This document shows positions 36,257-52,360 of a stretch of 64,000 bases of DNA, in pieces. The position numbers and the translations under genes are program-made. The notes beneath the pieces were generated by a model. That model saw nothing but the letters and a program-made list of their open reading frames with translations. It was not told the origin of the DNA and ran no database searches. Position 1 is the first letter of the stretch. Every line of letters begins with the position of its first letter. This stretch comes from Clostridiales bacterium (GTDB taxonomy: Bacteria; Bacillota; Clostridia; Oscillospirales; CAG-272), in NCBI GenBank assembly GCA_012514145.1, contig JAAZAV010000014.1:119265-183264 (forward strand), in the 5' to 3' direction.

Positions 36257-36263
36257 CCGTAAC

Positions 36264-37280
36264 ATGAGAGTAGAATATTTTGAACGCACGCCGCTGGATG
36301 CAGAGTTCTATGACAAATATCTCAAAGACCGCATCCCTTCAAAACTCATCGACATGCACCTACACTTCACCAAACCCGAGTTCTGCACCAACCTTCAGGT
36401 AGACCCAAACAGCTGGGCATCACAATGCAGCTCGAAAATGGAGTTTGAGGATTACAAGTATTACGCGAATATTTTCTATCCCGACACCGAGTTCTTTGTC
36501 AATGCCCTCCCATCGGTCACCAAGGGCATTGACATAGTGGGCAACAACGGCTATATCGCCGAACTGAAGGCTGCCGGCAAAGCCAAATACGCACATATGC
36601 TGGTCAATCCCGAGTGGACAGGCGATTACACCGAGAAAATGTTCCTTGAGGGCAATTTCGACGGCTACAAGCCCTATCCCGACTATGTATCGGGCAAGCG
36701 CGGCGCAGAGATCGGCATGTTTGATTTCGTCAACCCAGATCAGTATGAGATTCTTAACAAGTATAATAAGTCCATGGTGCTCCACCTTCCGAGAGCCGGA
36801 CGCTATCCCGACGACAACAACATCAAGGAACTGATTACAATCCGCGAGAAGTACCCGAATATTAAAGTCATCATCGCACACTGCGGCCGCTCTTACGCCA
36901 TGTATTTTATTACCGAAGCGGCAAGGAAGCTGGGCTCCATGTTCAACGACTTCTACTACGATCTCGCCGCAGTGCTCAATCCCGAGGTGTTAGATTTCAT
37001 GATGGCGAATGTTGATAACAAACGCATCATGTACGGCACCGACCTGCCGGTATTCCTGTGGCATGGCAAGCGCCGCTGGACCTACACCGAATATTTCAAC
37101 CTCGTCCGCGAGGATTTCAAATTCAACAAGCACGAGGAAGGCCCCGAGAAGGAAGCGGGCTACACCTTCTTCCTGTATGAGCAGCTTAAGAACATACTTG
37201 ATGTCACCGACAAATACGGCGGAAAGAAAACCGCCGAGGACATATTCTATAACAACGCAGTGAGAATTGTGGAGGGCTAA
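36264..37280 (+). CDS. amidohydrolase-2 family metal-dependent hydrolase (TIM barrel)
   Basis: LIDMHLHF near the N-terminus, IIAHCGRSY and MYGTDLPV blocks typical of Amidohydro_2. Confidence 0.7.
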   Translation: MRVEYFERTPLDAEFYDKYLKDRIPSKLIDMHLHFTKPEFCTNLQVDPNSWASQCSSKMEFEDYKYYANIFYPDTEFFVNALPSVTKGIDIVGNNGYIAELKAAGKAKYAHMLVNPEWTGDYTEKMFLEGNFDGYKPYPDYVSGKRGAEIGMFDFVNPDQYEILNKYNKSMVLHLPRAGRYPDDNNIKELITIREKYPNIKVIIAHCGRSYAMYFITEAARKLGSMFNDFYYDLAAVLNPEVLDFMMANVDNKRIMYGTDLPVFLWHGKRRWTYTEYFNLVREDFKFNKHEEGPEKEAGYTFFLYEQLKNILDVTDKYGGKKTAEDIFYNNAVRIVEG

Positions 37281-38654
37281 ATGGAAAAACTGAAAGTAGG
37301 GCTCCTGCCTCTTTATATCAAGCTTTATGACGACTTTTCGGCGCAGATGCGCCCGCGTATCGATCTCTTTTATGAGCAGATTACTGAGGCTATCCGTGCG
37401 AAGGGTGCAGAAGTTGTAACCTCACCTGTCTGCCGCCTGACCAAAGAGTTCAAAGCGACTGTTGCATATTTCGAGGAAGCCGGTGTTGACGCCATAGTCA
37501 CCCTGCATCTCGCCTACTCGCCTTCGCTGAAATCAGCCGAGGTTCTGGCTAACACCAGGCTGCCGATTGTTGTTCTTGACACTACCCCAACCTATATTTA
37601 CGATGCCTACACCGACCCCGCCGAGCTTTCATATAACCATGGCATCCACGGTGTACAGGATATGTGCAACCTGCTTCGCCGCAACGGCAAGTTCTTCCGG
37701 ATTCACGCCGGCCACTGGGAGGAGTCGGACGTCATAGACCGTGTCCTGGCATCTGTAAAGGGCGCAAAGTTGGCGAAGAAACTCCCCTCCATGCGTGTCG
37801 GAATGGTTGGTGAGCCTTTCAAGGGTATGGGCGACTTCCAGCTTGGCGGACGCAAGCTCAACAAGCTGCTTGGCTTCACCACCATCGACTTTGATATGGA
37901 TTCACAGTACGAAATATCCACGGCAGAGGCAGAAAGCGAATACGCGTATGACGCCGTTCGTTATGATGTTTCCGCGCTGACAAAAGATGAATATCTCGAG
38001 CGTGTAAAGGTTGATCTTGCAATCCGCAAGTGGGTCGAGGAACAGAAACTCGACGCCTTCACCGTAAACTTCCTCTCCACCTCAAAGGATAACGCCATGT
38101 ACTACATGCCCTTCACCGCCGCAAGCAAAGCCATGCGCGACGGTATCGGCTATGCAGGCGAAGGCGACCTTATGACCGCGGCTCTGGTCGGCACCTTCCT
38201 CAGCCAGTATAATGAGACATCCTTCACCGAAATGTTCTGCCCCGATTGGAAGAACAACTCGATATTCCTCAACCATATGGGCGAGCAGAACCCCAACTGC
38301 GCCGTCGGGTCCCGCTATGTAACCAGTTCATTTAAGTATACAGACGCCGGCGAGCCTATGAAGTTGGTCGGAACATTCAAGCCCGGCAAGGCGATATTCG
38401 CCTGTCTTGCTCCGCAGGCCGGCAACAAGTTCACTCTTATCGCTTCTCAGGTTGAGATGCTGGATACTCCTGCCGACAACCGTCACACCGGCGGCGTAAA
38501 CGGCTGGCTCAAGCCTGCCAAGCCGGTTTCGGACTTTCTTGAGGATTACAGCAGAAACGGCGGCATTCACCACGCGATGCTTGTCTACGGCGGAGATATC
38601 GAGGTTGTTAAAGCATTTGCCGAATATTCGGGTTTCGGTTTCGTTGAAATCTGA
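37281..38654 (+). CDS. L-fucose/L-arabinose isomerase family protein
   Basis: N-terminal KVGLLPLYIKLYDD pattern and about 457 aa length resemble the AraA/FucI-like family. The start abuts the upstream TAA. Family call from memory, not a search. Confidence 0.6.
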   Translation: MEKLKVGLLPLYIKLYDDFSAQMRPRIDLFYEQITEAIRAKGAEVVTSPVCRLTKEFKATVAYFEEAGVDAIVTLHLAYSPSLKSAEVLANTRLPIVVLDTTPTYIYDAYTDPAELSYNHGIHGVQDMCNLLRRNGKFFRIHAGHWEESDVIDRVLASVKGAKLAKKLPSMRVGMVGEPFKGMGDFQLGGRKLNKLLGFTTIDFDMDSQYEISTAEAESEYAYDAVRYDVSALTKDEYLERVKVDLAIRKWVEEQKLDAFTVNFLSTSKDNAMYYMPFTAASKAMRDGIGYAGEGDLMTAALVGTFLSQYNETSFTEMFCPDWKNNSIFLNHMGEQNPNCAVGSRYVTSSFKYTDAGEPMKLVGTFKPGKAIFACLAPQAGNKFTLIASQVEMLDTPADNRHTGGVNGWLKPAKPVSDFLEDYSRNGGIHHAMLVYGGDIEVVKAFAEYSGFGFVEI

Positions 38655-38693
38655 CGCAGACGCCGCATATATGTTTCACAGTGAGGTATTTAT

Positions 38694-39884
38694 ATGAATA
38701 ACATTGTAAAGATAGGTGTATTCGGCACCAAGCGCGGCAAATCCTTCATAAACGCTTTCAAAGATGTCGACGGTGTGAAGGTCACCGCACTATGCGATAA
38801 AAACACCGCAGCGCTCGATTCGGCAGCCGCTCTCTGCGATCCCGATGTGCAGAAGTATACCGACTTTGACGAATTCATCGAAAAGTCGGGTATTGACGCG
38901 GTTGTTCTCACCAACTATTTCCATCAGCATACCCCCTTCGCCATAAAGGCAATGGAGCGCGGAATCCATGTACTCAGTGAGACCACTCCTGCCTCGACTA
39001 TGGCGGAATGCGTTGCGCTCTGCCGCGCCGTTGAGCGTACCGGCTGCAAGTATATGCTTGCCGAGAACTATCCCTTCATGTGCTCATGTATTGAGCTTAA
39101 GCGCGTGTACGAAAGCGGCAAGCTCGGTCCGGTTATGTATGCCGAGGGTGAATATGTGCACCCCATGTCAGCCGCGGATTCCAATTCCATTTCCCCCGGT
39201 GAATTCCACTGGAGAAGGTGGCTGCCCCGCACCTATTATCTCACCCACTCACTGGCGCCTCTGATGCATATGACCGGCGCTATGCCGCTTAAGGTCAACG
39301 CCCGCACCTCCTGGCGTCCCGAATATTCCCTCGAGCGCGGCCGTGCGGTAGGCGACGGGCACAGCACCATCATGCTTGCCATGGATAATGACTCGGTGTT
39401 CCGTGTAGCCGGCTCATGCTGCTTCGGTCCTCATGGAAACTGGTACCGTCTCGGCTGTCTGCGCGGCGGCATTGAAACGGTGCGCGGCGATCAGAGCTCT
39501 GTCAGGCTTGTTTACAACTCCTGGGAGACTCCAGAAGGTGAGGAAAGCCGCACCTACACAGCCGAATGGAGAGAGCTGGGCGAGCTGGCAAGCAAAGCGG
39601 GACACGGCGGCGGCGACTTCTGGGTATGTTACCACTTCGCCAGGTATCTGACAGATGATGTCAAGCCATTCTTCGACGTGTACCGCTCAACTGCGATGTC
39701 GGCTGTCGCTATTCTCGCGTGGAGAAGCGTGCTTGAGGACGGTGCGACCAAGACTGTTCCCGACTTCTCCGACGAGGAGCAGCGGAAGCTCTGGGAAAAC
39801 GATACCGCCACCCCCTTCCCCACCGATGAGAACGGAATGGCAGCGGTATCTATGCCCTGCTCCAGCCGCGAGTTTAAAGTGTAA
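38694..39884 (+). CDS. Gfo/Idh/MocA family oxidoreductase
   Basis: N-terminal Rossmann KIGVFGTKRGKSF ... VTALCD ... DAVVLTNYFHQHTPFAIKAMERGIHVLSE(T)P pattern. Confidence 0.8.
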   Translation: MNNIVKIGVFGTKRGKSFINAFKDVDGVKVTALCDKNTAALDSAAALCDPDVQKYTDFDEFIEKSGIDAVVLTNYFHQHTPFAIKAMERGIHVLSETTPASTMAECVALCRAVERTGCKYMLAENYPFMCSCIELKRVYESGKLGPVMYAEGEYVHPMSAADSNSISPGEFHWRRWLPRTYYLTHSLAPLMHMTGAMPLKVNARTSWRPEYSLERGRAVGDGHSTIMLAMDNDSVFRVAGSCCFGPHGNWYRLGCLRGGIETVRGDQSSVRLVYNSWETPEGEESRTYTAEWRELGELASKAGHGGGDFWVCYHFARYLTDDVKPFFDVYRSTAMSAVAILAWRSVLEDGATKTVPDFSDEEQRKLWENDTATPFPTDENGMAAVSMPCSSREFKV

Positions 39885-39907
39885 TTGTTGTGAACTTATA
39901 GTTATAA

Positions 39908-39949
39908 CTCCCTGGTACCCAAAATCAAAGGTATCAGGGAGTTTTGTTT
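39908..39949. terminator. hairpin terminator between convergent operons
   Basis: CTCCCTGGTACC / GGTATCAGGGAG 12-bp stem (one G-U pair) followed by TTTTGTTT on the plus strand. Confidence 0.75.
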
Positions 39950-39958
39950 ATTCGGTTG

Positions 39959-40807
39959 TCACAATATAATATCAGAGTAAACGGGCATATGGTCGGAAAT
40001 CGGCATATACCATTCGGGCGCAGCGCGAACGAAGTTCCTGACTGTGCCATCGGCTATACCCCGGCAGAGGATGTGGTCAATTGCCTGTTCAAAGGTACCG
40101 GGATCGGGGTTAAGGTCAAAACCGCTGTTTCCGCATATGTGATGACCTCTTGTTTCGTCCGCATGGGCTGTGGCTATATCATGCGCATGGAGATAGCCGC
40201 GTGTCAGCAGCGATTGAATCGCCTCGGAGGAATACACGGCGTTAAGATCGCCGACGATATACCCGGGACAGTCATACTTTTCACAGAAGGCGTCAACCTC
40301 ATCCGCAAGGATGCCCAGCTGGTATTTCCGGGCTGCACCGCTGAAGGGCTGATAGGATTTTGATTCGGGATTGTCGCTCTTCCACCAAAGATGAGTGGAG
40401 GCAAAGACAAAGAGCCTGCCGTTCTCCTTGACCCGAAATACGGCTATTGTGCGGGATTTGGTTTTGCCGTTGTTGAAGCTGCCCTCGTGACCCGGGAGCT
40501 CTTCATCGTAAATTGCAAAACGCGAGTCAACTAACTCCAGGCGGTCGGCACGGTACCAGATCGGCGTATCGCGCCCCCAAAGTACGGCATAGTCTTTGCC
40601 GAGTGCGGTCAGTGATTCCTGTACCAGTTCGGTCATACGGGCGGAGATTTCCTGCAGACCGATAACGTCGGGAGCGGTCTCGTCTAAAATCCTCGCCACA
40701 CCCGGCGCACGGGCGTTAACGGAGCAGTCAAGCCCTTTCTCCGCCCATGCGGGCTGGTTTGTGTCGCATTTCCACAGGTTAGCGCTCAATATTCTCAGCT
40801 CTGCCAT
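39959..40807 (-). CDS. endonuclease/exonuclease/phosphatase (EEP) family protein
   Basis: LRILSANLW, VIGLQEI, GDLN and the C-terminal SDHMPVYSDI blocks. Confidence 0.85.
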   Translation of the reverse strand: MAELRILSANLWKCDTNQPAWAEKGLDCSVNARAPGVARILDETAPDVIGLQEISARMTELVQESLTALGKDYAVLWGRDTPIWYRADRLELVDSRFAIYDEELPGHEGSFNNGKTKSRTIAVFRVKENGRLFVFASTHLWWKSDNPESKSYQPFSGAARKYQLGILADEVDAFCEKYDCPGYIVGDLNAVYSSEAIQSLLTRGYLHAHDIATAHADETRGHHICGNSGFDLNPDPGTFEQAIDHILCRGIADGTVRNFVRAAPEWYMPISDHMPVYSDIIL

Positions 40808-40818
40808 GTTTATTCTCC

Positions 40819-41829
40819 TTATTTCTTGATGAAATTCGCCGTGGATGCCGTCATGTGCTTTGCATATTCCAGGTCAATTTCATGTTCCAGCGGCTCAATG
40901 CCGGCGATAAACCTGCGCAGATCGCCGATGAGCGCAAGAGTGACATGCTCTCTGATGTCGGTAGTCGGACCGCCGCGGTGAGGAACGAGATATATACCCT
41001 CAATTCCCCGCAGCGACGAATCGGCAGGCAGAGGCTCGCGCTCATACACATCAAGTATGGCGCGTATTCTTCCCTCGCGGCAGACTTTTGCCAGGTCATC
41101 CTCCACTATAATCGCACCGCGTGCGGTGTTGACAAAGAGTGCGTCCGGCTTCATTTTCTCGAAATAATGTGCATCGATCATATGATAGGTATCTTCTCGC
41201 AGGGATTCATGCAGCGATACAATGTCGCATGTTTCGAAAATCTCGTCCATATCGCACTTCTGAGCCCGATATTCCGTCTGCATTTCGGGCAGGAAATAAT
41301 CGGAGCATATTTTCACCGTGCATTCGAACGCCTGCAGCATCTTCGCAAGGTTCTTGGCAATCATGCCGAAGCCGATGATACCAATCGTCTTGAAGCGGAT
41401 ACCGTCGGAGCGGCGGTAGGGCGCCCAGCCGTTGTTATGGGTTTCGTTTATGACATCCACCAGTCTGCGCTGCGCCGCGATGATATAGCCGATTGTCCCC
41501 TCTGCCACCGAATTGGCATAAAGCCGGTTGCCGCAAACAAGACGTATGCCACGAGCGGTCATTTCCTCTGTCATGATACCTGCTACGCTGCCGCCGGTGT
41601 AGCAGACCAGTTTTAGTTTGTCGGCATTTCTCAGAAAATCATCGGTCATCTGAGGCATCCCCCAGTTGCCGAATAACACATCGACACCGGCCAGGGAGTC
41701 CCGCAGTTCGTCACGGCTCATAATTGCATATTTGGCATCGCCGCAGGTCTCAATCTCGGTTTTAGCACGCTCGGTGAAGAATGTGTTCTGAACTTCGGCG
41801 CTGGCGCTGCTGCTTACAAGTATATTCAT
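40819..41829 (-). CDS. D-isomer-specific 2-hydroxyacid dehydrogenase family protein
   Basis: NAD-binding IGIIGFGMIAKNLAKML and the catalytic-region block NTARGAIIVEDDL ... VPHRGGPT. Start set to the ATG at 41829 (AAAGGAA 11 nt upstream) rather than the track's 41883. Confidence 0.85.
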   Translation of the reverse strand: MNILVSSSASAEVQNTFFTERAKTEIETCGDAKYAIMSRDELRDSLAGVDVLFGNWGMPQMTDDFLRNADKLKLVCYTGGSVAGIMTEEMTARGIRLVCGNRLYANSVAEGTIGYIIAAQRRLVDVINETHNNGWAPYRRSDGIRFKTIGIIGFGMIAKNLAKMLQAFECTVKICSDYFLPEMQTEYRAQKCDMDEIFETCDIVSLHESLREDTYHMIDAHYFEKMKPDALFVNTARGAIIVEDDLAKVCREGRIRAILDVYEREPLPADSSLRGIEGIYLVPHRGGPTTDIREHVTLALIGDLRRFIAGIEPLEHEIDLEYAKHMTASTANFIKK

Positions 41830-41840
41830 GTATATGATAA

Positions 41841-41906
41841 TTCCTTTCGCTGCGCTCAAGTCACAAAAGGGTAATGAAACCAAATGCGGCGGCGCAGAGT
41901 TAAAAT
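41841..41906 (-). repeat. 66-nt direct repeat copy R1 (5' leader of the dehydrogenase gene)
   Basis: Hand alignment with 46675-46739 shows one 1-nt indel in an A-run plus 2 substitutions. It contains the ribosome-binding site and ends 11 nt before the ATG. Confidence 0.9.
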
Positions 41907-42045
41907 ATGTGATATGATAAGCTTGAGAAAAGGCACACTACAGAGTACGTGGAGGTTAGTGGACACAGCGCACGCTGAACCGTATGTTTATATGTACCGA
42001 TTTCTCAGGTTCGCAGAGGATTCTATGCCTGAACTTCATTATATC

Positions 42046-42081
42046 GGAGCTGTATCAATATCTTCGTTTTGATACAGCTCC
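42046..42081 (-). terminator. hairpin downstream of Ig-like paralog A
   Basis: Perfect 12-bp stem GGAGCTGTATCA / TGATACAGCTCC, but no clear U-tract on the minus strand. Confidence 0.4.
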
Positions 42082-42129
42082 GCTTTCGGTTGTTATGCGA
42101 GTTTGCCGGGTTGGTCAGGCTTTATGGTG

Positions 42130-44361
42130 TTAAGGATTGATATATTCGATTTTAACATGAAACGTCAGCTTTCCGCCGTATCTGTCGGTGATGATGCAGT
42201 CAGCTTCCGTGTATAAAGTCAAAGAATATATATACCAATCATCACGTCCCTGCAGCCAGCCATCTCCCCCGGTATGTACTTTGTATGATCCGTATTCCCC
42301 GGTCGTGCTGATTCCCAGTTTCGAGCCGTTAACTTCCGTTCTTACTATATGAACCACGGAGCCGTATTTCTCGACGCGATATTCCGGCTCGATGATATAA
42401 AGGTTTTCCGGCACCAGATTTTTGCGCCCCTGCCATTCAAAAGTCAGTCCTTCGCCGAGGACATAATCTCTCATGTCTATCCAATAGAGAGTGCCGTCCT
42501 TGGTGACTTCAAGTTTCGTCTGAGTCAGGTTATCCCGCTTGTATCTCAGCGTGCCTTCAAGCTTTGCCGGCATTGTCGCGAAATTGTGACCGTTTACCTT
42601 TCCTTTGCAGCGGAACCAGCAGCCGGAGGATTCCGACCCGACAAAGACATCGATTTTCTTGGAGTTGGTGTCGGGAAGGTCGACCCAGTTGCCGCCTTCG
42701 CTTCTGCGCTGCCAGACGCACTCGAGACTGTTGACTTTAAGTCCGATAAAATCAAAATCGAAACTGACACGTTCGTTGAATTTAGCTCTGACGCTCTTTG
42801 GATTCCGGATATTGTAATCTTTCGGCGCCGTGTCGTAGGTAATGGAAACCTCGTTGGAAATGACAGGTTCCGAATGCTGCCCGCTGATTACGCAGCGGAA
42901 TTTGAAAGTACCGCTGCCGTCCTCTTTGTACCATGTAAGCGTCGGAGTGTCAAATCCGGCAAACTGTGGGTTTTTATCGGGGACATCTCGCCAGTTGTTC
43001 AGCCATAAAAACTGCCAACGATAAAAGATCAAAGAATCGCCCGTTGCCTTGACATGAATCTCGGCAGGAACATTCTCTGTCTTGACAACGTTTTGCGGCT
43101 GCTCGGTTATTTTCAATTCCAGAAGCGAGTTGACTTTTGCCGGGGAAGAGGATACGGTAAGGCCATATCTGTCGGTGATAAGACAGATATACTCAGGCAG
43201 GCTGCCCGGTAATATTACATTTAATATCGGCGGCGGGTTTACCACGAGCGACAGCGTATTCGTCTGGGCGCCGGAGTAATTGGTTCCATCCTTTATATTT
43301 CTGTATTCATAGGACATGAATACTCCCTCTTCTTTGCTGAAGCTTCCGACCAGCTCCTGCCATTGATACTTAAGGTCAAGACCTTCGGCGCCGACATAGA
43401 GTGTGGCGATTTCTCCCGCCTTCTTTGTCTGTTCCTTCGGCTGCACGGTGATATTGATGCCTGGGCTTATAGGAATTATCGAAGCATAATCGGATGTGAC
43501 GGATTTGCCGTTTTTATCGGTTATGACGCAGCGGTAGCTGCCCGATCTGATCGCATATATATCGGCCAATATCGTCAGCTTCGATGCGGCTGCGCCGGAA
43601 ATGCCGCTTGATTCGTATAGGTCAACCCAGTTCCAGGAAGACGCCGCAGCGCTTTCCGGATTTGAATCGAAGGCTCTTTCATCCCGCTGCCATTTATATT
43701 TAAGACCCTCTCCGGACGCTTTGACTTCGAAGACCGCATAATCGCCCTCTTTGACATTGCAGTCTTCCGGCTGTTTTTCGATAACCGGTACGCCGGACGA
43801 CTCCGAAACCGGTTTCTCGTCGGAACCCGGCTTTTCGTCGGAATCCAAATCCGGCGTCGGCGCTCCTTTAAGCGTCAGGCTGAGCGTTCTCGCCTTCGGA
43901 TCCCAGACGTATTCTTTAGCGTAAAATTTCGCCAGGTCGTCGACGTAGATTATCGTACTGCCGCCGACGTTGAAGCTGTCCACCTTTACGCCGTCAAGAT
44001 AGGTGACAATGTCGGTGAAATACACCGGCATCGCCTTCGAGCCGATAGGATGGGTGTTTTTCTCCGGCTTGTATCCGCCGACTACCGGCACGCTTTCCAG
44101 CCGCCTTACGGTCAGCTCTCTTTCGACTCCGTACCATACTACATAAAAGCCGTAGTTCGAAAGGTCCTCAACTATAACGGCGGTGTTTCCTTTGATGTTG
44201 TAGGAACGAATTGGCAATCCGTTGATATAGGTTATGATGTCGGTGTGAAGAACATGATCGACCACATCCCCGACTTTCGGAGCGGCGAAGATAACCTGCG
44301 GCAGACACGCGAGAATTGTCAGGGTGAGCGCTAAAGCTAAGAATTGCTTGATTGCTTTCAT
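42130..44361 (-). CDS. secreted repeat protein, paralog A: signal peptide, two N-terminal ~65-aa repeats, linker, Ig-like modules
   Basis: Signal peptide ending IFA|AP. Repeats TDIITYINGLPIRSYNIKGNTAVIVEDL and TDIVTYLDGVKVDSFNVGGSTIIYVDDL. Ig-like signatures KYKWQ...GSYRCVITDKNGKSVTS, KYQWQ...EYICLITDRYGLTVSS, FYRWQ...FKFRCVISG and CVWQ...CWFRCKG. GAAAGGAA ribosome-binding site. Confidence 0.8.
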   Translation of the reverse strand: MKAIKQFLALALTLTILACLPQVIFAAPKVGDVVDHVLHTDIITYINGLPIRSYNIKGNTAVIVEDLSNYGFYVVWYGVERELTVRRLESVPVVGGYKPEKNTHPIGSKAMPVYFTDIVTYLDGVKVDSFNVGGSTIIYVDDLAKFYAKEYVWDPKARTLSLTLKGAPTPDLDSDEKPGSDEKPVSESSGVPVIEKQPEDCNVKEGDYAVFEVKASGEGLKYKWQRDERAFDSNPESAAASSWNWVDLYESSGISGAAASKLTILADIYAIRSGSYRCVITDKNGKSVTSDYASIIPISPGINITVQPKEQTKKAGEIATLYVGAEGLDLKYQWQELVGSFSKEEGVFMSYEYRNIKDGTNYSGAQTNTLSLVVNPPPILNVILPGSLPEYICLITDRYGLTVSSSPAKVNSLLELKITEQPQNVVKTENVPAEIHVKATGDSLIFYRWQFLWLNNWRDVPDKNPQFAGFDTPTLTWYKEDGSGTFKFRCVISGQHSEPVISNEVSITYDTAPKDYNIRNPKSVRAKFNERVSFDFDFIGLKVNSLECVWQRRSEGGNWVDLPDTNSKKIDVFVGSESSGCWFRCKGKVNGHNFATMPAKLEGTLRYKRDNLTQTKLEVTKDGTLYWIDMRDYVLGEGLTFEWQGRKNLVPENLYIIEPEYRVEKYGSVVHIVRTEVNGSKLGISTTGEYGSYKVHTGGDGWLQGRDDWYIYSLTLYTEADCIITDRYGGKLTFHVKIEYINP
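43865..44303 (-). repeat. 439-bp near-identical block (copy in paralog A)
   Basis: Aligns without gaps to 46167-46605 at an offset of 2302. About 5 mismatches in a 133-nt stretch compared by eye. Confidence 0.85.
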
Positions 44362-44415
44362 TTCGGTTCCTTTCGTGGTTTGATTTCGTGTTGCGTCTTG
44401 CTTTGAGTTCGGGAT

Positions 44416-44444
44416 ATCGGCGGCTTACACTGTCAGCCGCCGAT
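44416..44444 (-). terminator. hairpin between paralog B and paralog A
   Basis: Perfect 10-bp stem ATCGGCGGCT / AGCCGCCGAT. No U-tract, so it is at best a weak or partial terminator or an RNA-stability element. Confidence 0.4.
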
Positions 44445-44461
44445 TATCCAGGCTTTATTGG

Positions 44462-46663
44462 TTATTCCCAATCATATTCGATTGTAACATGAAATGTCAG
44501 CTTCTCGCCGTATTTATCGGTAATGTTGCAATACGCTTCTTCGTATAATTTTTCAACCACATACATTTCATCGTTGCCTGACCCGCTAAAATAGTACCTA
44601 TAATGGGTTGTACTTATCCCTAATCTCGGTCCATCAACTTGTGTTCTTATTACCCCAATTTCAGAGCCATGTGGCTCGAAGCGAATTTCCGGTTCAATGA
44701 TATAAAGGTTTTCGGGTATCCAGTTGTTGCGCCCTTCCCATTCATAAGTCAGACCTTCGCCTACGATATATTTGCTGACGTCTATCCAGTGCAGCTCGCC
44801 GTTAGTTTTGATTTTCATCGTTGTCTTCGTTAATCCGCTGCGTTTCGGAACCAGCGTACCCTGAAGCTGAGCCGGCATTGTTGTGAATTTATGACCGTTT
44901 ACCGTCCCCGTGCAGCGGTACCAGCAGCCGGAGTTTTCCGGAGTGATCTGCAGTAAAATGCTTGTGTCGGTAGGGTTTTTGCTTGGAAGATCAACCCACT
45001 TTCCGTCATTCCCTTTCATCTGCCATATACATTTTAGACTGTTAACCTTGATATTATAAAATCCAAAACTGAAAAAAGCTTCATCGTAAAATTTGCCTCT
45101 GAAAGTTTTAGGTTGGTATATCTGGTAATCTTCGATCGGCAGTTTGAAGGTAATCGCAGCTTCGTTGGAAATAACCGGTTCGGAATTCGGTCCGTCGACT
45201 ATGCAGCGGACATTTGAAGTACCGCTTGTATCTCGGCTCCATGAAAGCGTCGGTGTGTCAACGCCGGCAAATTTCGGATTATTTTCGGGGATGTCCGTCC
45301 ACTTTCCCAGCCATATAAACTGCCAGCGGTAAGAAAGCGGGAAATCGCCCTCCGCTTTTATATGAAGTTCGGCGGGAGCATTCTCGGTCTGTATAACATT
45401 TTTCGGCTGCTCGGTTATCCTGATTTCCCTGTAAGAGTTGATCATAGCCGGAGAAGAGGATATTGTCATGCCGTAGCGGTCGGTGATAAGACAGATATAC
45501 TTCTGTGTCCCGCCGGGCACTACTACCCCGAACATTTTCGACGCATCGACTTTAACCGTCAGAGTCTTCGTTTTGGTACCGGAGTATTTGCCGCCGTCAT
45601 CAATATTCTGGTATTCGGAGCTCATTAATATTCCGGAGCTGCTGTCGGCGTTGTATTTTAATACCAGCTCTTGCCACTGATATTTTAAGTCACTGCCGGT
45701 TGCTTCAACATAAAGGGTGGCGTATTCTCCCGCCTTCTTTCTTTGATCCTGCGGCTGTGTGATGATTTTAATGCTGGGCTTTAAGGGAATTATCGACACA
45801 TGATTTGATGTGACGGTTTTTCCGTTGCTGTCTGTTATAATGCAGCGATAGCCGCCGGAATAAACAGCGTCAAGGTCCACCAATACGGAGAGCTTCGATG
45901 TTTTTGCGCCGGAAATCCCTCCCCCGTCCGAAAGATTGACCCAATTCCAGGAGGAAGAAGTTGAGGCGCTGTCCGGCGTCGTTGATTTGGAGTCTGATTC
46001 TTCCCGCTGCCATCGGTATTTTAAGCCGTCTCCGGATGCTTTTACTTCAAAGAACGCATATTCGCCTTCTTTAACGCTGCAGCTCTCCGGTTGCTTTTCA
46101 ATGACCGGTTCTCCGGATGAACCAGAGCCCGGTTTATCTTCCGAACCTGAACCCGATGCAGAAGCGCCTTTAAGCGTCAGGCTGAGTGTCCTCGCCTTCG
46201 GATCCCAGAAGTATTCTTTCGCGTAGAATCTCGCCAGGTCGTCGACGTAGATTATCGTGCTGCCGCCGACATTGAAGCTGTCCACCTTTACGCCGTCAAG
46301 ATAGGTGACAATGTCAGTGAAATACACCGGCATCGCCTTCGAGCCGATCGGATGAGTGTTTTTCTCCGGCGTATAGCCGCCGACTACCGGTACGCTTTCC
46401 AGCCGCATTACGGTGAGTTTTCTTTGATCTCCATACCATACGACATAAAAGCCGTACTTCGAGAGATCCTCAACTATTACGGCGGTGTTGCCTTTGATGT
46501 TGTAGGAGCGGATCGGCAATCCGTTGATATAGGTTATGATGTCGGTGTGAAGAACATGATCGACCACATCCCCGACTTTCGGAGCGGCGAAGATAGCCTG
46601 CGGCATACCTGAAAACATTAATACAGCAAGCGCGAGGGCGATGAATCTCTTAATGGATTTCAT
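44462..46663 (-). CDS. secreted repeat protein, paralog B (same architecture as A)
   Basis: Start set to the ATG at 46663 (MKSIKRFIALALAVLMFSGMPQAIFA|AP; AAAGGAA 11 nt upstream). Residues of the two N-terminal repeats are almost identical to A, while the Ig-like part is clearly diverged (YRCIITDSNGKTVTS, KYICLITDRYGMTISS, VRCIVDG, CWYRCTG). Confidence 0.8.
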   Translation of the reverse strand: MKSIKRFIALALAVLMFSGMPQAIFAAPKVGDVVDHVLHTDIITYINGLPIRSYNIKGNTAVIVEDLSKYGFYVVWYGDQRKLTVMRLESVPVVGGYTPEKNTHPIGSKAMPVYFTDIVTYLDGVKVDSFNVGGSTIIYVDDLARFYAKEYFWDPKARTLSLTLKGASASGSGSEDKPGSGSSGEPVIEKQPESCSVKEGEYAFFEVKASGDGLKYRWQREESDSKSTTPDSASTSSSWNWVNLSDGGGISGAKTSKLSVLVDLDAVYSGGYRCIITDSNGKTVTSNHVSIIPLKPSIKIITQPQDQRKKAGEYATLYVEATGSDLKYQWQELVLKYNADSSSGILMSSEYQNIDDGGKYSGTKTKTLTVKVDASKMFGVVVPGGTQKYICLITDRYGMTISSSPAMINSYREIRITEQPKNVIQTENAPAELHIKAEGDFPLSYRWQFIWLGKWTDIPENNPKFAGVDTPTLSWSRDTSGTSNVRCIVDGPNSEPVISNEAAITFKLPIEDYQIYQPKTFRGKFYDEAFFSFGFYNIKVNSLKCIWQMKGNDGKWVDLPSKNPTDTSILLQITPENSGCWYRCTGTVNGHKFTTMPAQLQGTLVPKRSGLTKTTMKIKTNGELHWIDVSKYIVGEGLTYEWEGRNNWIPENLYIIEPEIRFEPHGSEIGVIRTQVDGPRLGISTTHYRYYFSGSGNDEMYVVEKLYEEAYCNITDKYGEKLTFHVTIEYDWE
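46167..46605 (-). repeat. 439-bp near-identical block (copy in paralog B)
   Basis: See 43865-44303. Confidence 0.85.
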
Positions 46664-46674
46664 TTTTATGACCT

Positions 46675-46739
46675 TTCCTTTCGCTGCGCTCAAGTCACAA
46701 AGGGTAATGAAACCAAATGCGACAGCGCAGAGTTAAAAT
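46675..46739 (-). repeat. 65-nt direct repeat copy R2 (5' leader of paralog B)
   Basis: Matches 41841-41906. It contains the ribosome-binding site and ends 11 nt before the ATG at 46663. Confidence 0.9.
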
Positions 46740-46789
46740 TCTTACCAGTTGTTTACATTAAACCATGCTTGTTTAATGTGCGCTTTCTG

Positions 46790-46951
46790 CTATTAAAAGC
46801 AAGAACAAGTCCCCCTGGAATTGTCAAACGTTACAATGCTCTGAAAAAGCGCAGGGGTCACAAGAAAGCAGTGATTGCTATTGCTCGAATGCTGCTGACT
46901 GCCATCTTCAGCGTTCTCAAAAAACACGAACCTTACCCCCCGGAACTTTAT
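46790..46951 (+). mobile_element. IS110-family transposase C-terminal remnant (5'-truncated, non-functional)
   Basis: Only IVKRYNALKKRRGHKKAVIAIARMLLTAIFSVLKKHEPY resembles the extreme C-terminus of IS110/IS1111 transposases (..RGKKKAIVAVARKLL..). No DEDD N-terminal domain is present, and the rest of the 162-aa ORF is not protein-like. Confidence 0.6.
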
Positions 46952-47239
46952 CGCAAATCCGACACTCCTCCGGAGATTAGTAATGTGCCTTTTGATAAAT
47001 CAGTCTTTATTTTACAGCGTCAGAGGTATTTATTTCGTCTTAGTCTTAAGGCGGTTGAGTTTAATTTATATCCATCTCAATCACCTTTACGGAGGTCTGT
47101 TTTTTGCGCCTGTTTTTATTCGCTTAGCCGATCATTTATCAATCTTATCCTCCAATCAAAGTCATTATCTTTCATAATCTATAATATCACCACGCTGACG
47201 CACGGTCAAGTGGCAGATTCATTATTTCCGTTCTTATGC

Positions 47240-47268
47240 TTGTCTGTATCCGGCTAATGTGGTATACT
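47240..47268 (+). promoter_or_regulatory. sigma-A type promoter (extended -10) for the 47312 gene
   Basis: TTGTCT, 17 nt, TGgTATACT. Confidence 0.55.
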
Positions 47269-47311
47269 TTAAGTGGATAAACCTCACCGACATTAATGTG
47301 GAGGCCAGATT

Positions 47312-49570
47312 ATGACAAAAGCTGAAGTTAAAAAACATAACGGTACACCAGCGATCTTCATCGACGGAAAGGTATACCCGCCGATGACCGCTACCATACG
47401 CACTAACTGCCGGGACCATATGAAAATCGACCGCGACTACTACCGCCGTCTCGGTGAATCGGGAATCAAACTCTACTTTCTCATCTGCGACACCGAATGG
47501 CTCAAGCCCGGTGCACTTGCACAGTTCCGTGAGGAGGCTGAGATCTTACTCGAGGAAGTACCCGATGCCTATATCATACTGCGTATAGGACTGCACCCTC
47601 CGGTATCCTGGTGTGAGAGTAATCCCGATGAGCTGGTGCGTTACAGTGACGGCTCGCTGCGTCCGAATCATCTCTATACAGAGTCATACGAGGCGGACTA
47701 TCCTGCCATGTATTCCCTCTGCTCCGACAAGTGGCGCCAGGACGCGGGAAAAGCACTCATGGAAACCTATGACGCCATCAAGGCGCTGCCCTATGCCGAC
47801 AGGATTGTCGGTTACTTCCTGGCAGCCGGCAATACCTCGGAGTGGTACTACCACGACGCCGACCGATCAGACGGCAGTTATCCGGGCTTCAGTCCCGCTT
47901 TCCGCCGCGAGTTTACGCGCTACCTAACAGCAAAATACGGCAGCGACAAGGCGTTGAACGAAGCATGGCGCACCACGGGCGAAACCCTCGATAATCCTAC
48001 TATCCCACCCCAGAACGAGCGCGACTACTTCTGGAAGGTTGAGAATCGAATCTTCAATCCCGGCAGACTTTATTCCACATCGCCGAAACCCGCGATGCCG
48101 AAGCTCAACTGCCACGTGGGCGCATATCTCGATGTTGATAAGAGTCTGCGCACATTGGATTTTCTGCACGCCTGGCACCTCGGCACTGCAAACTCCGTCG
48201 TACACTTCGCATCGCTAATAAAGCAGCGCTCAAAGTATAAACTCACCGGCGCCTTCTACGGCTCCCACAATCACGGCGGCTTCAGCGGAATTGCCTGCGG
48301 AGTACAGCGCATACTTGATTCTGGAGTTGTAGATTTTCTTGCGGCACCCGGCGACTACCGAAATCGCCAGGTCGGCGGTTTCTGCGGTCATCGTGAAGTG
48401 GTCGATGCATTCACGTTGCGGAACTGCATGTACATTATGGAAGAAGACACCCGCACCCACGCCGAGAACACATACTATAACAATTTTGTCGAAATGTACG
48501 ACATGGACGACACTATCAACGTCATGAAGCGGGATTTCGGACGAAATCTCTGCGAGGACATGAACGCCTGGTGGTTTGATCAGCATATCGGCGGTGGGCG
48601 CTATAAGTACGAGGAGATTTATTCGCTGATCTCGCATCAACAGAAAATTGCCGCCAGGTCTTACGAACTCGACCGCCTAAAGCGCAACGAGGTGGCGTTC
48701 ATCTTCGATGAGGAGACACCCCACTGTGTATCAACGCTTGCCCATCGTGAGAGCGTTGAAGATTTTCGCGACTTTGAGATTTCTCGCATCGGACTGTCCG
48801 GAGACCGCTATTATCATGACGACCTGGCGAACCCCGACATGCCCGACTATAAGCTATATGTCTTTGTTGACTGTCACGTATTGACTGCCGATGAGCGTGA
48901 TGCGATACATGCAAAGCTCTCCAAGAACCGTGCCACAGCCGTGTGGATGTGCGCCTCGGGCTTAATAGACCCGGAAGCAACCACACGTCTTGACCCGGCA
49001 CATGTGAGCGAATTGACCGGAATCCCGATGCGGCTGGAGGACACTTATATCTCACCGAAGTTCAAGTTCGTAAAGGACGGTCATCCTGCGTTCGCCGCCC
49101 TTGACACGCATGAAATCTACGGCTTCAGCTACCGACCCATGTTATCGGTAGTCAGTGCAAACTTCTCAAACAGATATTATTACCTATGTCCAGTCGTTGT
49201 GCCCGAGGAATCGCCTGGCGTCACGGTTGCAGCACGCTTCTGCGAGACCGGATGGCCGTCGGTTGCGGTAAAGGATAACGACAGCTTCACCTCTGTTTTC
49301 GTATCGACCCGCTCCTGCCGTGCCGACTTCTTCCGTGAAGCCGCCAGGTATGCCGGATGTCATGTCTTCTGCGACAGCGATGATGTAATCTACGCCTCAC
49401 GCAACTTTGTAACCATTCACGCATCGTCAAGTGGAGAGAAAAAACTGCGCTTCCCTTCAATCTGCTCACCATACGAGGTGTATGAGGAAAGAAAATACGC
49501 AGAAAATACCGACAGCATAACCTTCACTATGTACCGCGGCGAAACGAAGACCTTCGCGATTTTCGAGTAA
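47312..49570 (+). CDS. hypothetical protein, putative GH42-like TIM-barrel glycosidase
   Basis: 752 aa, no signal peptide. FSPAFRREFTRYLTAKYGSDKALNEAWRT resembles the F..WL...YG....LN.AW block of GH42-type enzymes. The assignment is tentative. Confidence 0.7.
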   Translation: MTKAEVKKHNGTPAIFIDGKVYPPMTATIRTNCRDHMKIDRDYYRRLGESGIKLYFLICDTEWLKPGALAQFREEAEILLEEVPDAYIILRIGLHPPVSWCESNPDELVRYSDGSLRPNHLYTESYEADYPAMYSLCSDKWRQDAGKALMETYDAIKALPYADRIVGYFLAAGNTSEWYYHDADRSDGSYPGFSPAFRREFTRYLTAKYGSDKALNEAWRTTGETLDNPTIPPQNERDYFWKVENRIFNPGRLYSTSPKPAMPKLNCHVGAYLDVDKSLRTLDFLHAWHLGTANSVVHFASLIKQRSKYKLTGAFYGSHNHGGFSGIACGVQRILDSGVVDFLAAPGDYRNRQVGGFCGHREVVDAFTLRNCMYIMEEDTRTHAENTYYNNFVEMYDMDDTINVMKRDFGRNLCEDMNAWWFDQHIGGGRYKYEEIYSLISHQQKIAARSYELDRLKRNEVAFIFDEETPHCVSTLAHRESVEDFRDFEISRIGLSGDRYYHDDLANPDMPDYKLYVFVDCHVLTADERDAIHAKLSKNRATAVWMCASGLIDPEATTRLDPAHVSELTGIPMRLEDTYISPKFKFVKDGHPAFAALDTHEIYGFSYRPMLSVVSANFSNRYYYLCPVVVPEESPGVTVAARFCETGWPSVAVKDNDSFTSVFVSTRSCRADFFREAARYAGCHVFCDSDDVIYASRNFVTIHASSSGEKKLRFPSICSPYEVYEERKYAENTDSITFTMYRGETKTFAIFE

Positions 49571-49587
49571 TGTCATAAAATATAAAA

Positions 49588-49615
49588 ACAGGGATGCCCT
49601 AACCGGTATCCCTGT
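49588..49615. terminator. bidirectional hairpin terminator
   Basis: ACAGGGATGCC / GGTATCCCTGT 11-bp stem with a 6-nt loop. Flanked by AAAAA on the left (a U-tract for the minus-strand gene) and TTATCGTT on the right. Confidence 0.7.
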
Positions 49616-49629
49616 TTATCGTTATCGAG

Positions 49630-51750
49630 CTATTCCCCGCGGACTTCAAAGCGCACTACAATGCGGTGCTTTTCTGACGGTGCGGTCTTGTAGTATATAT
49701 GATACTGATTTGGCATGTCTGCGGCAAACTCGGCGGGTACGCCGTCGTTCAGGTCGGTATCGTATTTGTCGCTCAGCTCGGGTAACCCGAGATCGCCTTC
49801 AACAGGGGAAATCGTCAGATGCCTGCCGCCGCGCACCACATGCACCCGCTTTCCTTCGGCTTTGGGTTTTGAGAGAGTATGCAGCGGGTATGTCACTGTT
49901 ACGAGTTTGTCAGCCTCAACCTCGTCGATGACGGTCAGGAGATCCTTCTCAAGCTGCAAAGTGCGCCGCCAGAGAGTCAGCATCGGATATGCACTGCTCA
50001 AATCCAGCACGGCGGTCTTTACCGCGCCGTCGTCGCGGCATTCGACGATCCTGCCCCGCGACTCGATGCTGTTCCATGGCTGACCTTCTCCGTCGATGAG
50101 CAGCGCATTGTGAGCCTTGGTGGTTTTTGTCCATTTGAAATGATGGTTTGTGCCGTAACCCCGGCCGAAGTAGCCGGAGGGTGAAATCAGAGCTTTACCG
50201 TTTGAAAACAGCGCAAAACTGCCCTGATCTGCGTGACGATGGCTATCCGATCCGAACTTTGACGCTCTTGCCATAACCGCCAGATCATCACCCGAACCGT
50301 TCAAAAGGTCGGTGTGCATACTTACAAAGCCGGCATCCGGGAAGCATTGAACATTCTCAGCCTTCCCGGTCAGGGCTGCCTGGGTTGATGCGCGGTCGGG
50401 AATGAATACATCCAACAGGTGCAGCAGGTAGATGTTCTGCTCTGCCGCGTCGTCCGAAAGACGCTTAGCCTCAGGAGGACCGAAGCGGTCTGCGTAAAGC
50501 CGGAAGGGATTCTGGGCAAAGAAACCCGGCCATTCCTTGTCCTCTGGATGGCACCAGTAGCCGTCGCCGAAGGGATGATTCTCATGCGCAGGATTTGCGA
50601 AGTGGAGAAAAAACTGTGTCAGCCGCTGATAGAATGGTCTGTCGAGGAATGCACAGCCGCTGTAGCGCTCAACCGCACAGAAGAAAGGCAGATACCAGCG
50701 GGTGTAGCTGGTAGAATAGAAGGTTCCCTCCGCCCAGCCGCCGTCCGGAGTTCCGAAGTAGGGGAAAATACCGCCGTAAATGTCAAGCGCGTAATCGAGC
50801 CAGTTCAGTGCCTCTTCCCTCGACTGTATGCCGCTGTCTTTGAGGACAAGCGCCGCTTCGCCGAGGTATGCCGCGATGCGCCCCGCGTGTGAATCTCCGG
50901 GGTTGGCGCAGTAGTCAAGTTTCTTGAGACGTATCCAGCACTGCTCTGCATATGTGCGGACGGTATACGCGACATATCTCCGCTCTTTATCATCAAGCAG
51001 CTGCCACAGCAGGTCGTAAACCGAGGGTAAACAGCGCGAACAGCTGAGTCCTATCTCGTCGCCCCAGGGACCCAGCAGCGAACAGGGACCGTGAGGGTTC
51101 CAGTCGCATATGGTAAGCAGCAGCTCCTTGGCGTATGCGCCTGCCATCTCATCTCCGAGTAATGCGTAACCCAATGAGCACGCCACAAGGTCGCGGTCGC
51201 AGTAATCGCGGAATCTGCCGAAGAACTCACGATAGGGCAGCGCAGCCGGGTCGCGATGATACATGGGGCGCTCGGGCATGCCGTTTGCGTATGCCGTGTC
51301 GATATTCCGGCGCAGTACGGCAAGCTCTGTCTGCCTGGCGCGGAGGATTTCAGGAATATCACTCGTCGAGAATAGGTGACGAGGATGCTCTGCCGGTATG
51401 CTGTCGTAAAGCTCTTCAGCGGTGACCCGTTTGATTTTTACCGCGTAATCGGCTATGGTGAAGTTCCAGAGTCCCCTTCTCCGACCGTCTGCAAATATGT
51501 CCCAGGTATAATCACCGGACTCAAGGGGAATATCGGGGACTATGTAGTTTTTCTGCGTCTCACCGCTCCACAGCTCGCTGCCGCCGCGGTACAATACGAC
51601 CTTATATGTCACACTGCCGCCGACAGGCAGCCAGGACAGACAGGGCGGGTTTTCCTCCACAACGCGTCCGTCCTCCGGGAAGGGGAAAAGCTGTCTCGGA
51701 TTTGTCCGCGTCTGACTGAAATATTCGGGATTGCTCATCTTTATTTCCAT
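49630..51750 (-). CDS. heparinase II/III-like polysaccharide lyase family protein (DUF4962 N-terminus)
   Basis: C-terminal block DSHRHADQGSFALFSNGKALISPSGYFG ... HNALLIDGEGQ typical of Hepar_II_III. N-terminal PPCLSWLPVGGSVTYKVVLY. GGAGG 5 nt before the ATG. No signal peptide. Confidence 0.8.
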   Translation of the reverse strand: MEIKMSNPEYFSQTRTNPRQLFPFPEDGRVVEENPPCLSWLPVGGSVTYKVVLYRGGSELWSGETQKNYIVPDIPLESGDYTWDIFADGRRRGLWNFTIADYAVKIKRVTAEELYDSIPAEHPRHLFSTSDIPEILRARQTELAVLRRNIDTAYANGMPERPMYHRDPAALPYREFFGRFRDYCDRDLVACSLGYALLGDEMAGAYAKELLLTICDWNPHGPCSLLGPWGDEIGLSCSRCLPSVYDLLWQLLDDKERRYVAYTVRTYAEQCWIRLKKLDYCANPGDSHAGRIAAYLGEAALVLKDSGIQSREEALNWLDYALDIYGGIFPYFGTPDGGWAEGTFYSTSYTRWYLPFFCAVERYSGCAFLDRPFYQRLTQFFLHFANPAHENHPFGDGYWCHPEDKEWPGFFAQNPFRLYADRFGPPEAKRLSDDAAEQNIYLLHLLDVFIPDRASTQAALTGKAENVQCFPDAGFVSMHTDLLNGSGDDLAVMARASKFGSDSHRHADQGSFALFSNGKALISPSGYFGRGYGTNHHFKWTKTTKAHNALLIDGEGQPWNSIESRGRIVECRDDGAVKTAVLDLSSAYPMLTLWRRTLQLEKDLLTVIDEVEADKLVTVTYPLHTLSKPKAEGKRVHVVRGGRHLTISPVEGDLGLPELSDKYDTDLNDGVPAEFAADMPNQYHIYYKTAPSEKHRIVVRFEVRGE

Positions 51751-51770
51751 TTGCGCCTCCCCCGCGCCAT

Positions 51771-52331: not shown

Positions 52332-52360
52332 CTAAATTATATTTAATAATATATACTAAA

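Follow-up and report, generated by a model that had tools for sequence, protein, structure and literature searches.

Insertion sequences (ISs) of the IS110 family provide the closest described systems for the locus reported here. Passages in PMC2942039 (citing Doran 1997 and Inglis 2003) and in PMC8141618 (citing Doran 1997) describe IS900 and IS901 as inserting, in one orientation, into the stretch that separates the Shine-Dalgarno (SD) sequence of a host gene from its start codon. IS110-group elements have a long left end (LE), and the bridge RNA it encodes is made up of a 5′ stem-loop and two further loops, one for the target and one for the donor (PMC11208160). Furthermore, Hu et al. (bioRxiv 2026, 10.64898/2026.08.14.744561) reported IS110 loci that carry cargo and are duplicated in part. 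Here, we analyzed a 64-kb stretch of DNA from a Clostridiales bacterium (contig JAAZAV010000014.1; this whole stretch is hereafter called the window), in which a 66-nt direct repeat precedes both a 2-hydroxyacid dehydrogenase gene and one of two Ig-like genes (paralogs A and B). The locus belongs to an already known kind, namely a cargo-bearing IS110 unit in a translation initiation region. With a probability of roughly 0.9, both repeat copies, read on the plus strand, are the first ~70 bases of the LE of two decayed IS110-family (IS110-group) copies; the figure is for the best explanation as a whole, which comprises the identity of the repeat, the geometry of insertion, a 5.3-kb inserted unit and the proposed steps of expression.

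The 66-nt Repeat and IS110-Family Left Ends

Positions 41841-41906 and 46675-46739 were aligned by blastn in direct orientation with 63/66 identities, two substitutions and one 1-nt gap that falls in a T/A run (E 5e-24), in agreement with the hand alignment of a first-pass annotation of this DNA, which had counted one single-base indel and two substitutions. No third copy was found within the 64-kb window by blastn with both leaders, and a degenerate 31-mer allowing up to 3 mismatches hit exactly two window sites, both of them the repeat copies (0 expected from 100 shuffles). Each copy had been described as ending 11 nt upstream of a minus-strand ATG; this is true of the high-identity block at 41829 and at 46663, and weaker similarity between the copies extends to 2-5 nt from each ATG (repeat family D9; alignment). 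As also claimed, the downstream genes are unrelated, since Pfam assigned one to 2-hydroxyacid dehydrogenases and the other to Ig-domain proteins, and at the sequence level the repeat is "portable" and now an SD-like source for both.

The origin of the repeat became apparent from IS relatives, which were retrieved by a search with a transposase fragment of the window; this returned many proteins having a Transposase_20 domain only, and the relatives lie on the contigs that encode them. Positions 41833-42006 match the LE of L033 and L040, two relatives with both transposase domains (the open reading frames (ORFs) of L033 carry DEDD_Tnp_IS110 and Transposase_20), with 76-77% identity over 182-184 nt in the IS-sense orientation (blastn, E 1e-27 to 1e-29). 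The match lies on the plus strand of the window, i.e., antisense to the dehydrogenase leader. Copy 2 likewise matches the first ~50 nt of the L033 and L040 LEs (blastn).

The relic around copy 1, IS_1 (41832-42005, plus strand), consists of the core (41832-41833, AT, degenerate from TT) and LE positions 1-176. Its similarity to relatives ends after 42005, as examined by blastn and by alignment with five LEs, and the remainder of the element is missing. The IS-derived sequence here, 41832-42005, is longer than the extent that had been claimed for copy 1. The second relic, IS_2, has two parts on the plus strand. The left part (46664-46739) comprises a flank TT, the core TT (46666-46667) and LE positions 1 to ~72-76, and contains copy 2; the right part (46748-47146) comprises a C-terminal fragment of the transposase (~46748-47056) and the right end (RE), which finishes in ...ATCAATC-TT and has the motif TTTCA(G/A)(A/T)CTT in common with the relatives in an RE alignment. 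The fragment is 63% identical over 95 aa to residues 117-210 of the second ORF of L033 (tblastn, E 5e-35), and the right part also matches L033, L040 and L028, a metagenome contig described below (blastn). The ~95-residue fragment alone gave no Pfam match. Since LE 1-76, the transposase C-terminus and the RE are collinear, lying on one strand in the correct order, copy 2 and the neighboring "truncated transposase" are one element with an internal deletion of ~1.2 kb that joins LE position ~76 to the transposase C-terminus (junction 46740-46747). The outer copy does adjoin a C-terminal IS110 fragment, as had been stated, but the two are parts of the same element, joined by this deletion.

The search for further copies suggested in the first-pass annotation was fruitful in metagenomes and returned only chance matches in reference genomes. 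Both scans used a 19-mer taken from the repeat. The reference collection, from which the source genome is absent, gave six chance matches in unrelated taxa with no extension; the metagenomes gave 24 matches, of which just two, L028 and L029, were genuine. Around copy 2, L029 and the window are 100% identical; one metagenome sample is the source of both L029 and L028. The latter carries the repeat before an operon of pepP (Xaa-Pro aminopeptidase) and efp, in a form intermediate in sequence between copies 1 and 2 and with ~90 further upstream bases common with copy 1. The pepP-efp part of L028 has a tetranucleotide r of 0.855, compared with 0.858 as the median among 3.5-kb pieces of the window itself, and because of this matching signature L028 is probably another locus of the window organism; pepP homologues were at most 59% identical.

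L028 is a second cargo-type IS110 locus from the same community. In L028:1-2660, a foreign ABC transporter (GC 0.35 vs ~0.50 in pepP-efp) lies between two IS fragments of the same family, both of which resemble the "truncated IS110" beside copy 2. The L028 relic, in which LE 1-155 is joined to 117 nt of RE, fills the entire gap from the transporter stop codon to the pepP ATG. A spread of the promoter and leader of pepP-efp to two further genes was considered and dropped when the sequence proved to be an IS left end.

The first-pass annotation had also offered a portable leader or cis-regulatory RNA as an explanation. In this case, the repeat would be an independent leader RNA (a riboswitch, an attenuator or a protein-binding element) for a regulon of pepP-efp, the dehydrogenase gene and paralog B, and it does form the 5′ leader of three unrelated genes, with a hairpin and an SD at its end. 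However, scanning the 64 kb gave no Rfam match at the gathering threshold and chance-level matches only at E up to 10 around copy 1; the fold z-scores are modest (-1.25 and -2.6), and the two substitutions are not compensatory. Furthermore, the copies are 92-96% identical with unrelated flanks, indicating recent copying rather than a conserved regulon motif, the orthologous dehydrogenase genes of sister strains (see below) lack the repeat, and the homology runs beyond the hairpin into the IS110 LE. With the repeat being the antisense of an IS110 LE over the 182-184 nt aligned above, an independent leader RNA is extremely unlikely.

The Empty Site and the 5.3-kb Inserted Unit

The closest homologue of the dehydrogenase, P0241 (97% identical), is encoded on the sister-strain contigs L056-L059, one of which is 115 kb long and one of which is from a biogas fermenter. 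In all four, the dehydrogenase gene and a gene for a 752-aa protein are divergent and 168 nt apart, and there are no Ig-like paralogs. L056 aligns to positions 57115-47145 (96.5%) and 41835-30816 (97.4%) of the window with a 4-nt overlap, so that the flanks are compared over 21 kb. On the gene strand, the empty site of L056-L059 reads TTGACC-17-TGaTATTAT ... AATTGGAGGAT-AA-ACATG, with GGAGGAT on the SD side; its target sequence is CATGTTTATCCTCC. Read in the direction of the IS, the empty site is CATGT-TT-ATCCTCC, and the occupied site of the window is CATGT-AT-[LE...RE]-TT-ATCCTCC. The window thus has 5.3 kb (41832-47146) between GGAGGAT-AA and ACATG, with the core on both sides.

Because the sister strains have this site without the block, the window contains a 5.3-kb unit bounded by an LE and an RE, and this unit (41832-47146) is inserted exactly between the dehydrogenase SD (47147-47153) and ATG (41829). 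From left to right, it consists of IS_1 (LE 1-176), a 124-nt spacer, paralogs A and B, and IS_2; besides the IS sequences, the two Ig-like genes are its only ORFs with support (ORF list; Pfam). That a cassette had inserted between an existing promoter/SD and the dehydrogenase ATG, as the first-pass annotation had proposed in outline, is therefore borne out by L056-L059. Its account of the boundaries needs correction. The repeat copies had been taken to bracket an AT-richer segment, and the sequence between them is indeed mildly AT-rich (GC 0.47-0.50 vs 0.52-0.56 in the neighbors), but the inserted block is the whole of 41832-47146, and it is bounded on the outside by the IS right end (47146) instead of copy 2. 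In addition, a single repeat copy had been expected in strains with an empty site; L056-L059 have zero copies of the 66-mer, no IS and no Ig-like genes at the site.

These data bear on the possibility that the repeat is an attL/attR-like or duplication scar, i.e., that the 66-mer is the native dehydrogenase leader, duplicated when the cassette integrated by a site-specific or Campbell-type event. Two direct copies do flank the paralog cassette, and the insertion of a cassette at this site is real. However, the empty site lacks the 66-mer, and the native leader there is unrelated and has its own SD, GGAGGA. The repeat is also homologous to IS110 left ends in unrelated genomes, a third copy lies before pepP, on its outer side the insertion stops with the IS right end (47146) rather than with copy 2, and the ORF list contains no integrase ORF in the 5.3 kb of 41832-47146. 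Given the zero copies at the empty site and the missing integrase, we consider a scar of this kind virtually ruled out.

How the cassette came to lie between two IS110 relics is indicated by the junctions of IS_2. Its LE and the paralog B ATG form the standard junction of the element, CAT-TT-TT-ATGACC, and its RE abuts the dehydrogenase SD. Because the LE of IS_2 shows this standard paralog B junction, the cassette most likely arrived by IS-IS recombination or by a composite move. In the first case, an IS at the dehydrogenase site would have recombined homologously with an IS before paralog B on incoming DNA; in the second, a composite with two ISs would have moved into the dehydrogenase site. 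The deletions in both IS modules would have come afterwards.

Alternatively, two ISs could have inserted independently, one before the dehydrogenase gene and one before paralog B, with the cassette already present and the ISs playing no role in its acquisition. Both LE-to-ATG junctions are standard for the element, and the clade targets many different genes, which favors such a history. It is nevertheless highly unlikely, since the RE of IS_2 abuts the SD and promoter of the dehydrogenase operon and not any SD of paralog B, and since the empty site lacks the entire block from the IS_1 LE to the IS_2 RE, which has the core at each of its ends. An ancestral cassette would require a deletion that exactly restored GGAGGAT-AA-ACATG.

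Recombination between the direct copies themselves, which are 95% identical over 66 nt, could in addition delete 4.8 kb and leave one LE relic before the dehydrogenase gene. No such single-relic derivative was found among the contigs retrieved.

Insertion Sites of the Relatives in Translation Initiation Regions

Five relatives from other metagenomes (L033, L040, L042, L048 and L051) have a complete LE and RE. Their architecture is a DEDD_Tnp_IS110 ORF and a Transposase_20 ORF with an LE of 303-310 nt and an RE of ~90-110 nt, and, by eye, the element does not have inverted repeats at its ends, ATGACCATTCC... and ...TTTCAGAC. The N-terminal DEDD/RuvC-like domain (PF01548) and the C-terminal transposase domain (PF02371) were both seen in L033, L042 and L051, on two separate ORFs. 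P0123 (L036), P0125 (L037-L039) and P0239 (L049, L050) gave only IS copies that are 5′-truncated and without an LE.

In all eight junctions available (5/5 complete relatives and 3/3 relics), 5 nt separate the LE from the ATG of an opposite-strand gene, with the junction consensus CAT-NN-TT-ATGACCATTCCTTTCC. The target genes of the five relatives encode an Imm33 protein, a 174-aa protein, a GT2 glycosyltransferase, a LicD protein and a Na+/H+ antiporter. At the other side, the RE ends in ...TTTCA(G/A)(A/T)C-TT, and the reverse complement of an SD follows next in 5/6 sites (4/5 relatives and the window); the sequences found at the RE flank are GCCTCC, CTCCT, TTTCCTC, TCTCCTC and ATCCTCC. A dinucleotide core is present at both junctions with no target duplication beyond it, as seen by comparing the window with the empty site, and the relatives have the same geometry. 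This IS110 clade targets the SD-to-ATG interval of a gene on the opposite strand, with the LE near the ATG and the RE abutting the SD.

The transposase is split in every relative examined, into a DEDD ORF (~200 aa) and a Transposase_20 ORF (186-225 aa) that overlap or lie a few bases apart; an example is L033:3411-4654, and the same was seen in L042, L048 and L051. Among the best 120 database matches to the transposase fragment, all had 146-230 aa and PF02371 only. The split may represent a two-ORF or frameshift architecture rather than random decay. An antisense ORF resembling "hed" was not found in L033, where no antisense ORF exceeds 125 aa and none starts at the RE flank.

Bridge-RNA-Like Features of the Left End

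The inverted pair CUGCGC...GCGCAG, which had been noted in the first-pass annotation, proved to be a hairpin of which an equivalent is kept in relatives. It lies at 41850-41897 on the plus strand, with a second copy at 46683-46730, and folds on both strands, with energies of -16.6 to -17.6 kcal/mol and z-scores of about -2.2 to -2.5. Hairpins with other stem sequences occupy the same LE position in L033 (AUGCUG/CAGCAU), L040 and L042 (GUUUC/GAAAC). The position matches the site of the 5′ stem-loop in LEs of the IS110 group (PMC11208160), and we infer from the sequences that the hairpin is the 5′ stem-loop of a bridge RNA. Rfam contains no matching model for the left end, relaxed thresholds included.

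Further into the LE, RNAalifold predicted an internal loop whose closing stem, GGUACAC/GUGUACC, has 3 compensatory pairs. On the 3′ strand of this predicted loop, the left-target-guide-like segment TATGTTT (41983-41989, plus strand) equals the left target of the empty site, CATGT-TT, at 6/7 positions. The 7 nt that follow GAACCG in the LE equal the element's own left flank at two variable bases in 6/6 elements, the variable dinucleotides being AG, AT, AA, TT, AT and GT; 288 of 100,000 permutations were as good (0.003). A third LE segment (~208-219), resembling a left donor guide (LDG), covaries with the RE end, which is AGACTT, AAACTT or AACCTT. At the sequence level, a guide-like LE segment that covaries with the flank of its own element is what would be expected of a bridge RNA.

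On the 5′ strand of the predicted loop, TGGAGGTTAG (41950-41959, plus strand), which contains GGAGG, is tentatively assigned as a right-target-guide-like segment. Aligned by hand, it is complementary to the core plus right flank of the dehydrogenase site, TTATCCTCCA, with 8 Watson-Crick pairs and 1 G-T pair in 10. In L042, the right-guide position has ATAAGGTG, with AUAAGGUG in place of GGAGG, and the flank has CACTTTAT in place of CCTCC. The candidate guide for the right flank lies 5′ of that for the left flank in the window (41950-41989) and in L033, L040, L042, L048 and L051.

Promoter, Shine-Dalgarno Sequence and Expected Consequences for Expression

The native SD of the dehydrogenase operon, GGAGGAT (47147-47153, minus strand), is now 5.3 kb from the ATG, whereas the two are arranged as GGAGGAT-AA-ACATG at the empty site. 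A candidate native promoter of the operon, recognized by consensus match only, is found at 47181-47209 on the minus strand (TTGACC, 17 nt, TG-n-TATTAT). It is the best promoter-like site in the region (10/12 with TG), is conserved in the empty-site contigs, and now faces IS_2 and paralog B. An assignment of this SD and promoter to paralog B was ruled out by the empty site; because of that comparison, both are attributed to the dehydrogenase operon. Upstream of the SD, the 5′ untranslated region (UTR) between the -10 box and the native SD (47154-47180 vs L056:9963-9989) differs at ~12/27 positions, against 96.5-97.4% identity in the flanks, which could reflect relaxed constraint after insertion or a recombination tract.

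The candidate native promoter is followed, in order, by the 483-nt antisense IS_2, paralog B, paralog A, a hairpin, IS_1, the dehydrogenase gene and the EEP gene. Within 20 nt of the ATGs of paralog B and the dehydrogenase gene, (G)AAAGGAA from the antisense LE is the only SD-like sequence, and a change in copy 2 creates a second, better-spaced AAAGG 8 nt from the paralog B ATG. (G)AAAGGAA would act as a substitute SD for both genes. A promoter scan evaluated by eye gave no convincing outward promoter in the antisense LE, and paralog B, paralog A and the dehydrogenase gene are presumably transcribed from the native dehydrogenase promoter through the relics. The SD-like segment is conserved in relatives as GGAAAGGAATGGTCATAA; this conservation may reflect selection for the substitute SD, or for donor or promoter functions of the IS.

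Points Weighing Against the IS110 Interpretation

Several observations speak against the interpretation of the locus as an IS110-borne insertion with substitute SDs, or limit how far it can be carried. Regarding identity, no intact copy of the IS was found in the window or strain, the scanned genome collection being one without the source genome, and the relatives are only ~76% identical in the LE. Their two-ORF transposase could be a frameshift, decay or a genuine architecture. Regarding history, the RE and native flank of IS_1 are missing, and therefore a cointegrate, a composite move and stepwise growth are all possible courses of events. The polarity is also open to reversal: excision of IS110 elements is precise, so that the "empty" strains could have lost the unit. 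Regarding expression, the substitute SD in copy 1 is 12-13 nt from the ATG, a long spacing. Regarding the guides, no single register of the right-guide pairing holds for all elements, with 1-nt bulges in some, and the right-guide assignment is tentative for this reason; moreover, the IS621 bridge RNA has its guides in the opposite order to that found here.

Genes and Spacer at the Locus

The 2-hydroxyacid dehydrogenase gene, whose translation initiation region is the insertion target, occupies 40819-41829 on the minus strand (Pfam 2-Hacid_dh_C, 3e-46). The cargo genes are on the same strand: paralog A (743 aa) at 42130-44361 and paralog B (733 aa, ATG at 46663) at 44462-46663, both with Pfam Ig_3 and I-set domains and both absent from the empty-site strains. 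They are in tandem and have 70-88% nucleotide identity. The N-terminal 300 nt (43823-44122 and 46125-46424) are 88% identical, compared with 70-82% elsewhere, which suggests gene conversion or stronger constraint at the signal peptide/N-terminal domain. Look-ups of the exact proteins gave no match for paralog B or for the neighboring 752-aa protein; that of the dehydrogenase yielded nothing beyond short contigs ending within paralog A.

The spacer between IS_1 and the stop codon of paralog A (42006-42129, 124 nt) contains a hairpin at 42045-42082 (inverted repeat I11). By eye, it is homologous to the region downstream of paralog B (44362-44461), and no similarity to the IS relatives was found.

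The insertion is surrounded by an apparent sugar/polysaccharide utilization cluster (35400-52400), which is conserved and collinear in L056. Its members include an FGGY kinase, an AraA-like isomerase, a GFO/IDH/MocA oxidoreductase, an EEP-family protein and a heparinase II/III-like protein, as well as the 752-aa protein, for which there was no Pfam match.

Significance and Comparison with Known Systems

The locus is a clean natural case, with an empty-site control, in which a putatively RNA-guided IS split an SD from its ATG, left a putative substitute SD and brought two cargo genes into a host operon. For annotation, it means that short "leader repeats" beside start codons can be relics of IS110 ends and need not be att sites or RNAs with a regulatory role. 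Should the guide assignments be correct, base pairing would explain why some IS110-family elements, known since IS900, target translation initiation signals, and the element would represent a compact natural recombinase-guide pair aimed at SD-to-ATG junctions.

A broader idea is speculative and, in our estimate, more probably wrong than right. A clostridial IS110 clade might possess a bridge RNA that recognizes translation initiation regions generally, its GGAGG guide pairing with the anti-sense of the SD and its second guide reading the start codon plus two reprogrammable bases. If, in addition, the LE evolved an antisense replacement SD and the elements captured cargo, the result would be a natural "operon knock-in" vehicle, bringing genes from elsewhere under the control of a host promoter, with relic leaders that are complementary to the bridge RNA of an active copy. 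The replacement SD would then keep an insertion from silencing its target gene, and the two Ig-like genes would have been spliced into the dehydrogenase operon by such a vehicle.

In insertion behavior, the window element is most like IS900 and IS901 of Mycobacterium avium, which also belong to the DEDD/IS110 family and insert in a fixed orientation between the SD and the ATG. It differs from them in its host, which is clostridial (Oscillospiraceae-like) and occurs in biogas and gut-type metagenomes, and in the two-ORF transposase of all the relatives examined; the IS900-type antisense ORF "hed" has no long counterpart in L033. The LE of the window element further carries an antisense SD-like sequence, GGAAAGGAA, that would replace the displaced SD, and we found no such report for IS900.

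With IS621 and the IS110 group, the element has in common a long LE, a short RE, the lack of terminal inverted repeats and a dinucleotide core at both junctions. Its LE also appears to have the same layout, a 5′ hairpin followed by a predicted internal loop with flank-matching segments (PMC11208160). The core is TT in the window element but CT in IS621, and IS621 targets a repetitive extragenic palindromic (REP) element, the window element a translation initiation region.

Like the expanded IS110 loci of Hu et al., the window unit is bounded by an LE and an RE, is larger than 2 kb when defined against the empty site, and combines non-transposase cargo with a partial duplicate of the IS110 module and no other recombinase. 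Unlike in those loci, the cargo consists of two secreted Ig-domain proteins and not of plasmid or resistance genes, and no circular intermediates are known; both IS modules in the window are decayed, and the unit is therefore probably immobile now. Finally, as in a composite transposon or an IS-mediated cointegrate, two direct IS copies flank passenger genes. In contrast to a composite transposon, which inserts at random with target duplications, the outer junctions here are site-specific and putatively RNA-guided, at one SD-to-ATG site, and one of the inner junctions is itself a standard insertion junction before a cargo gene.

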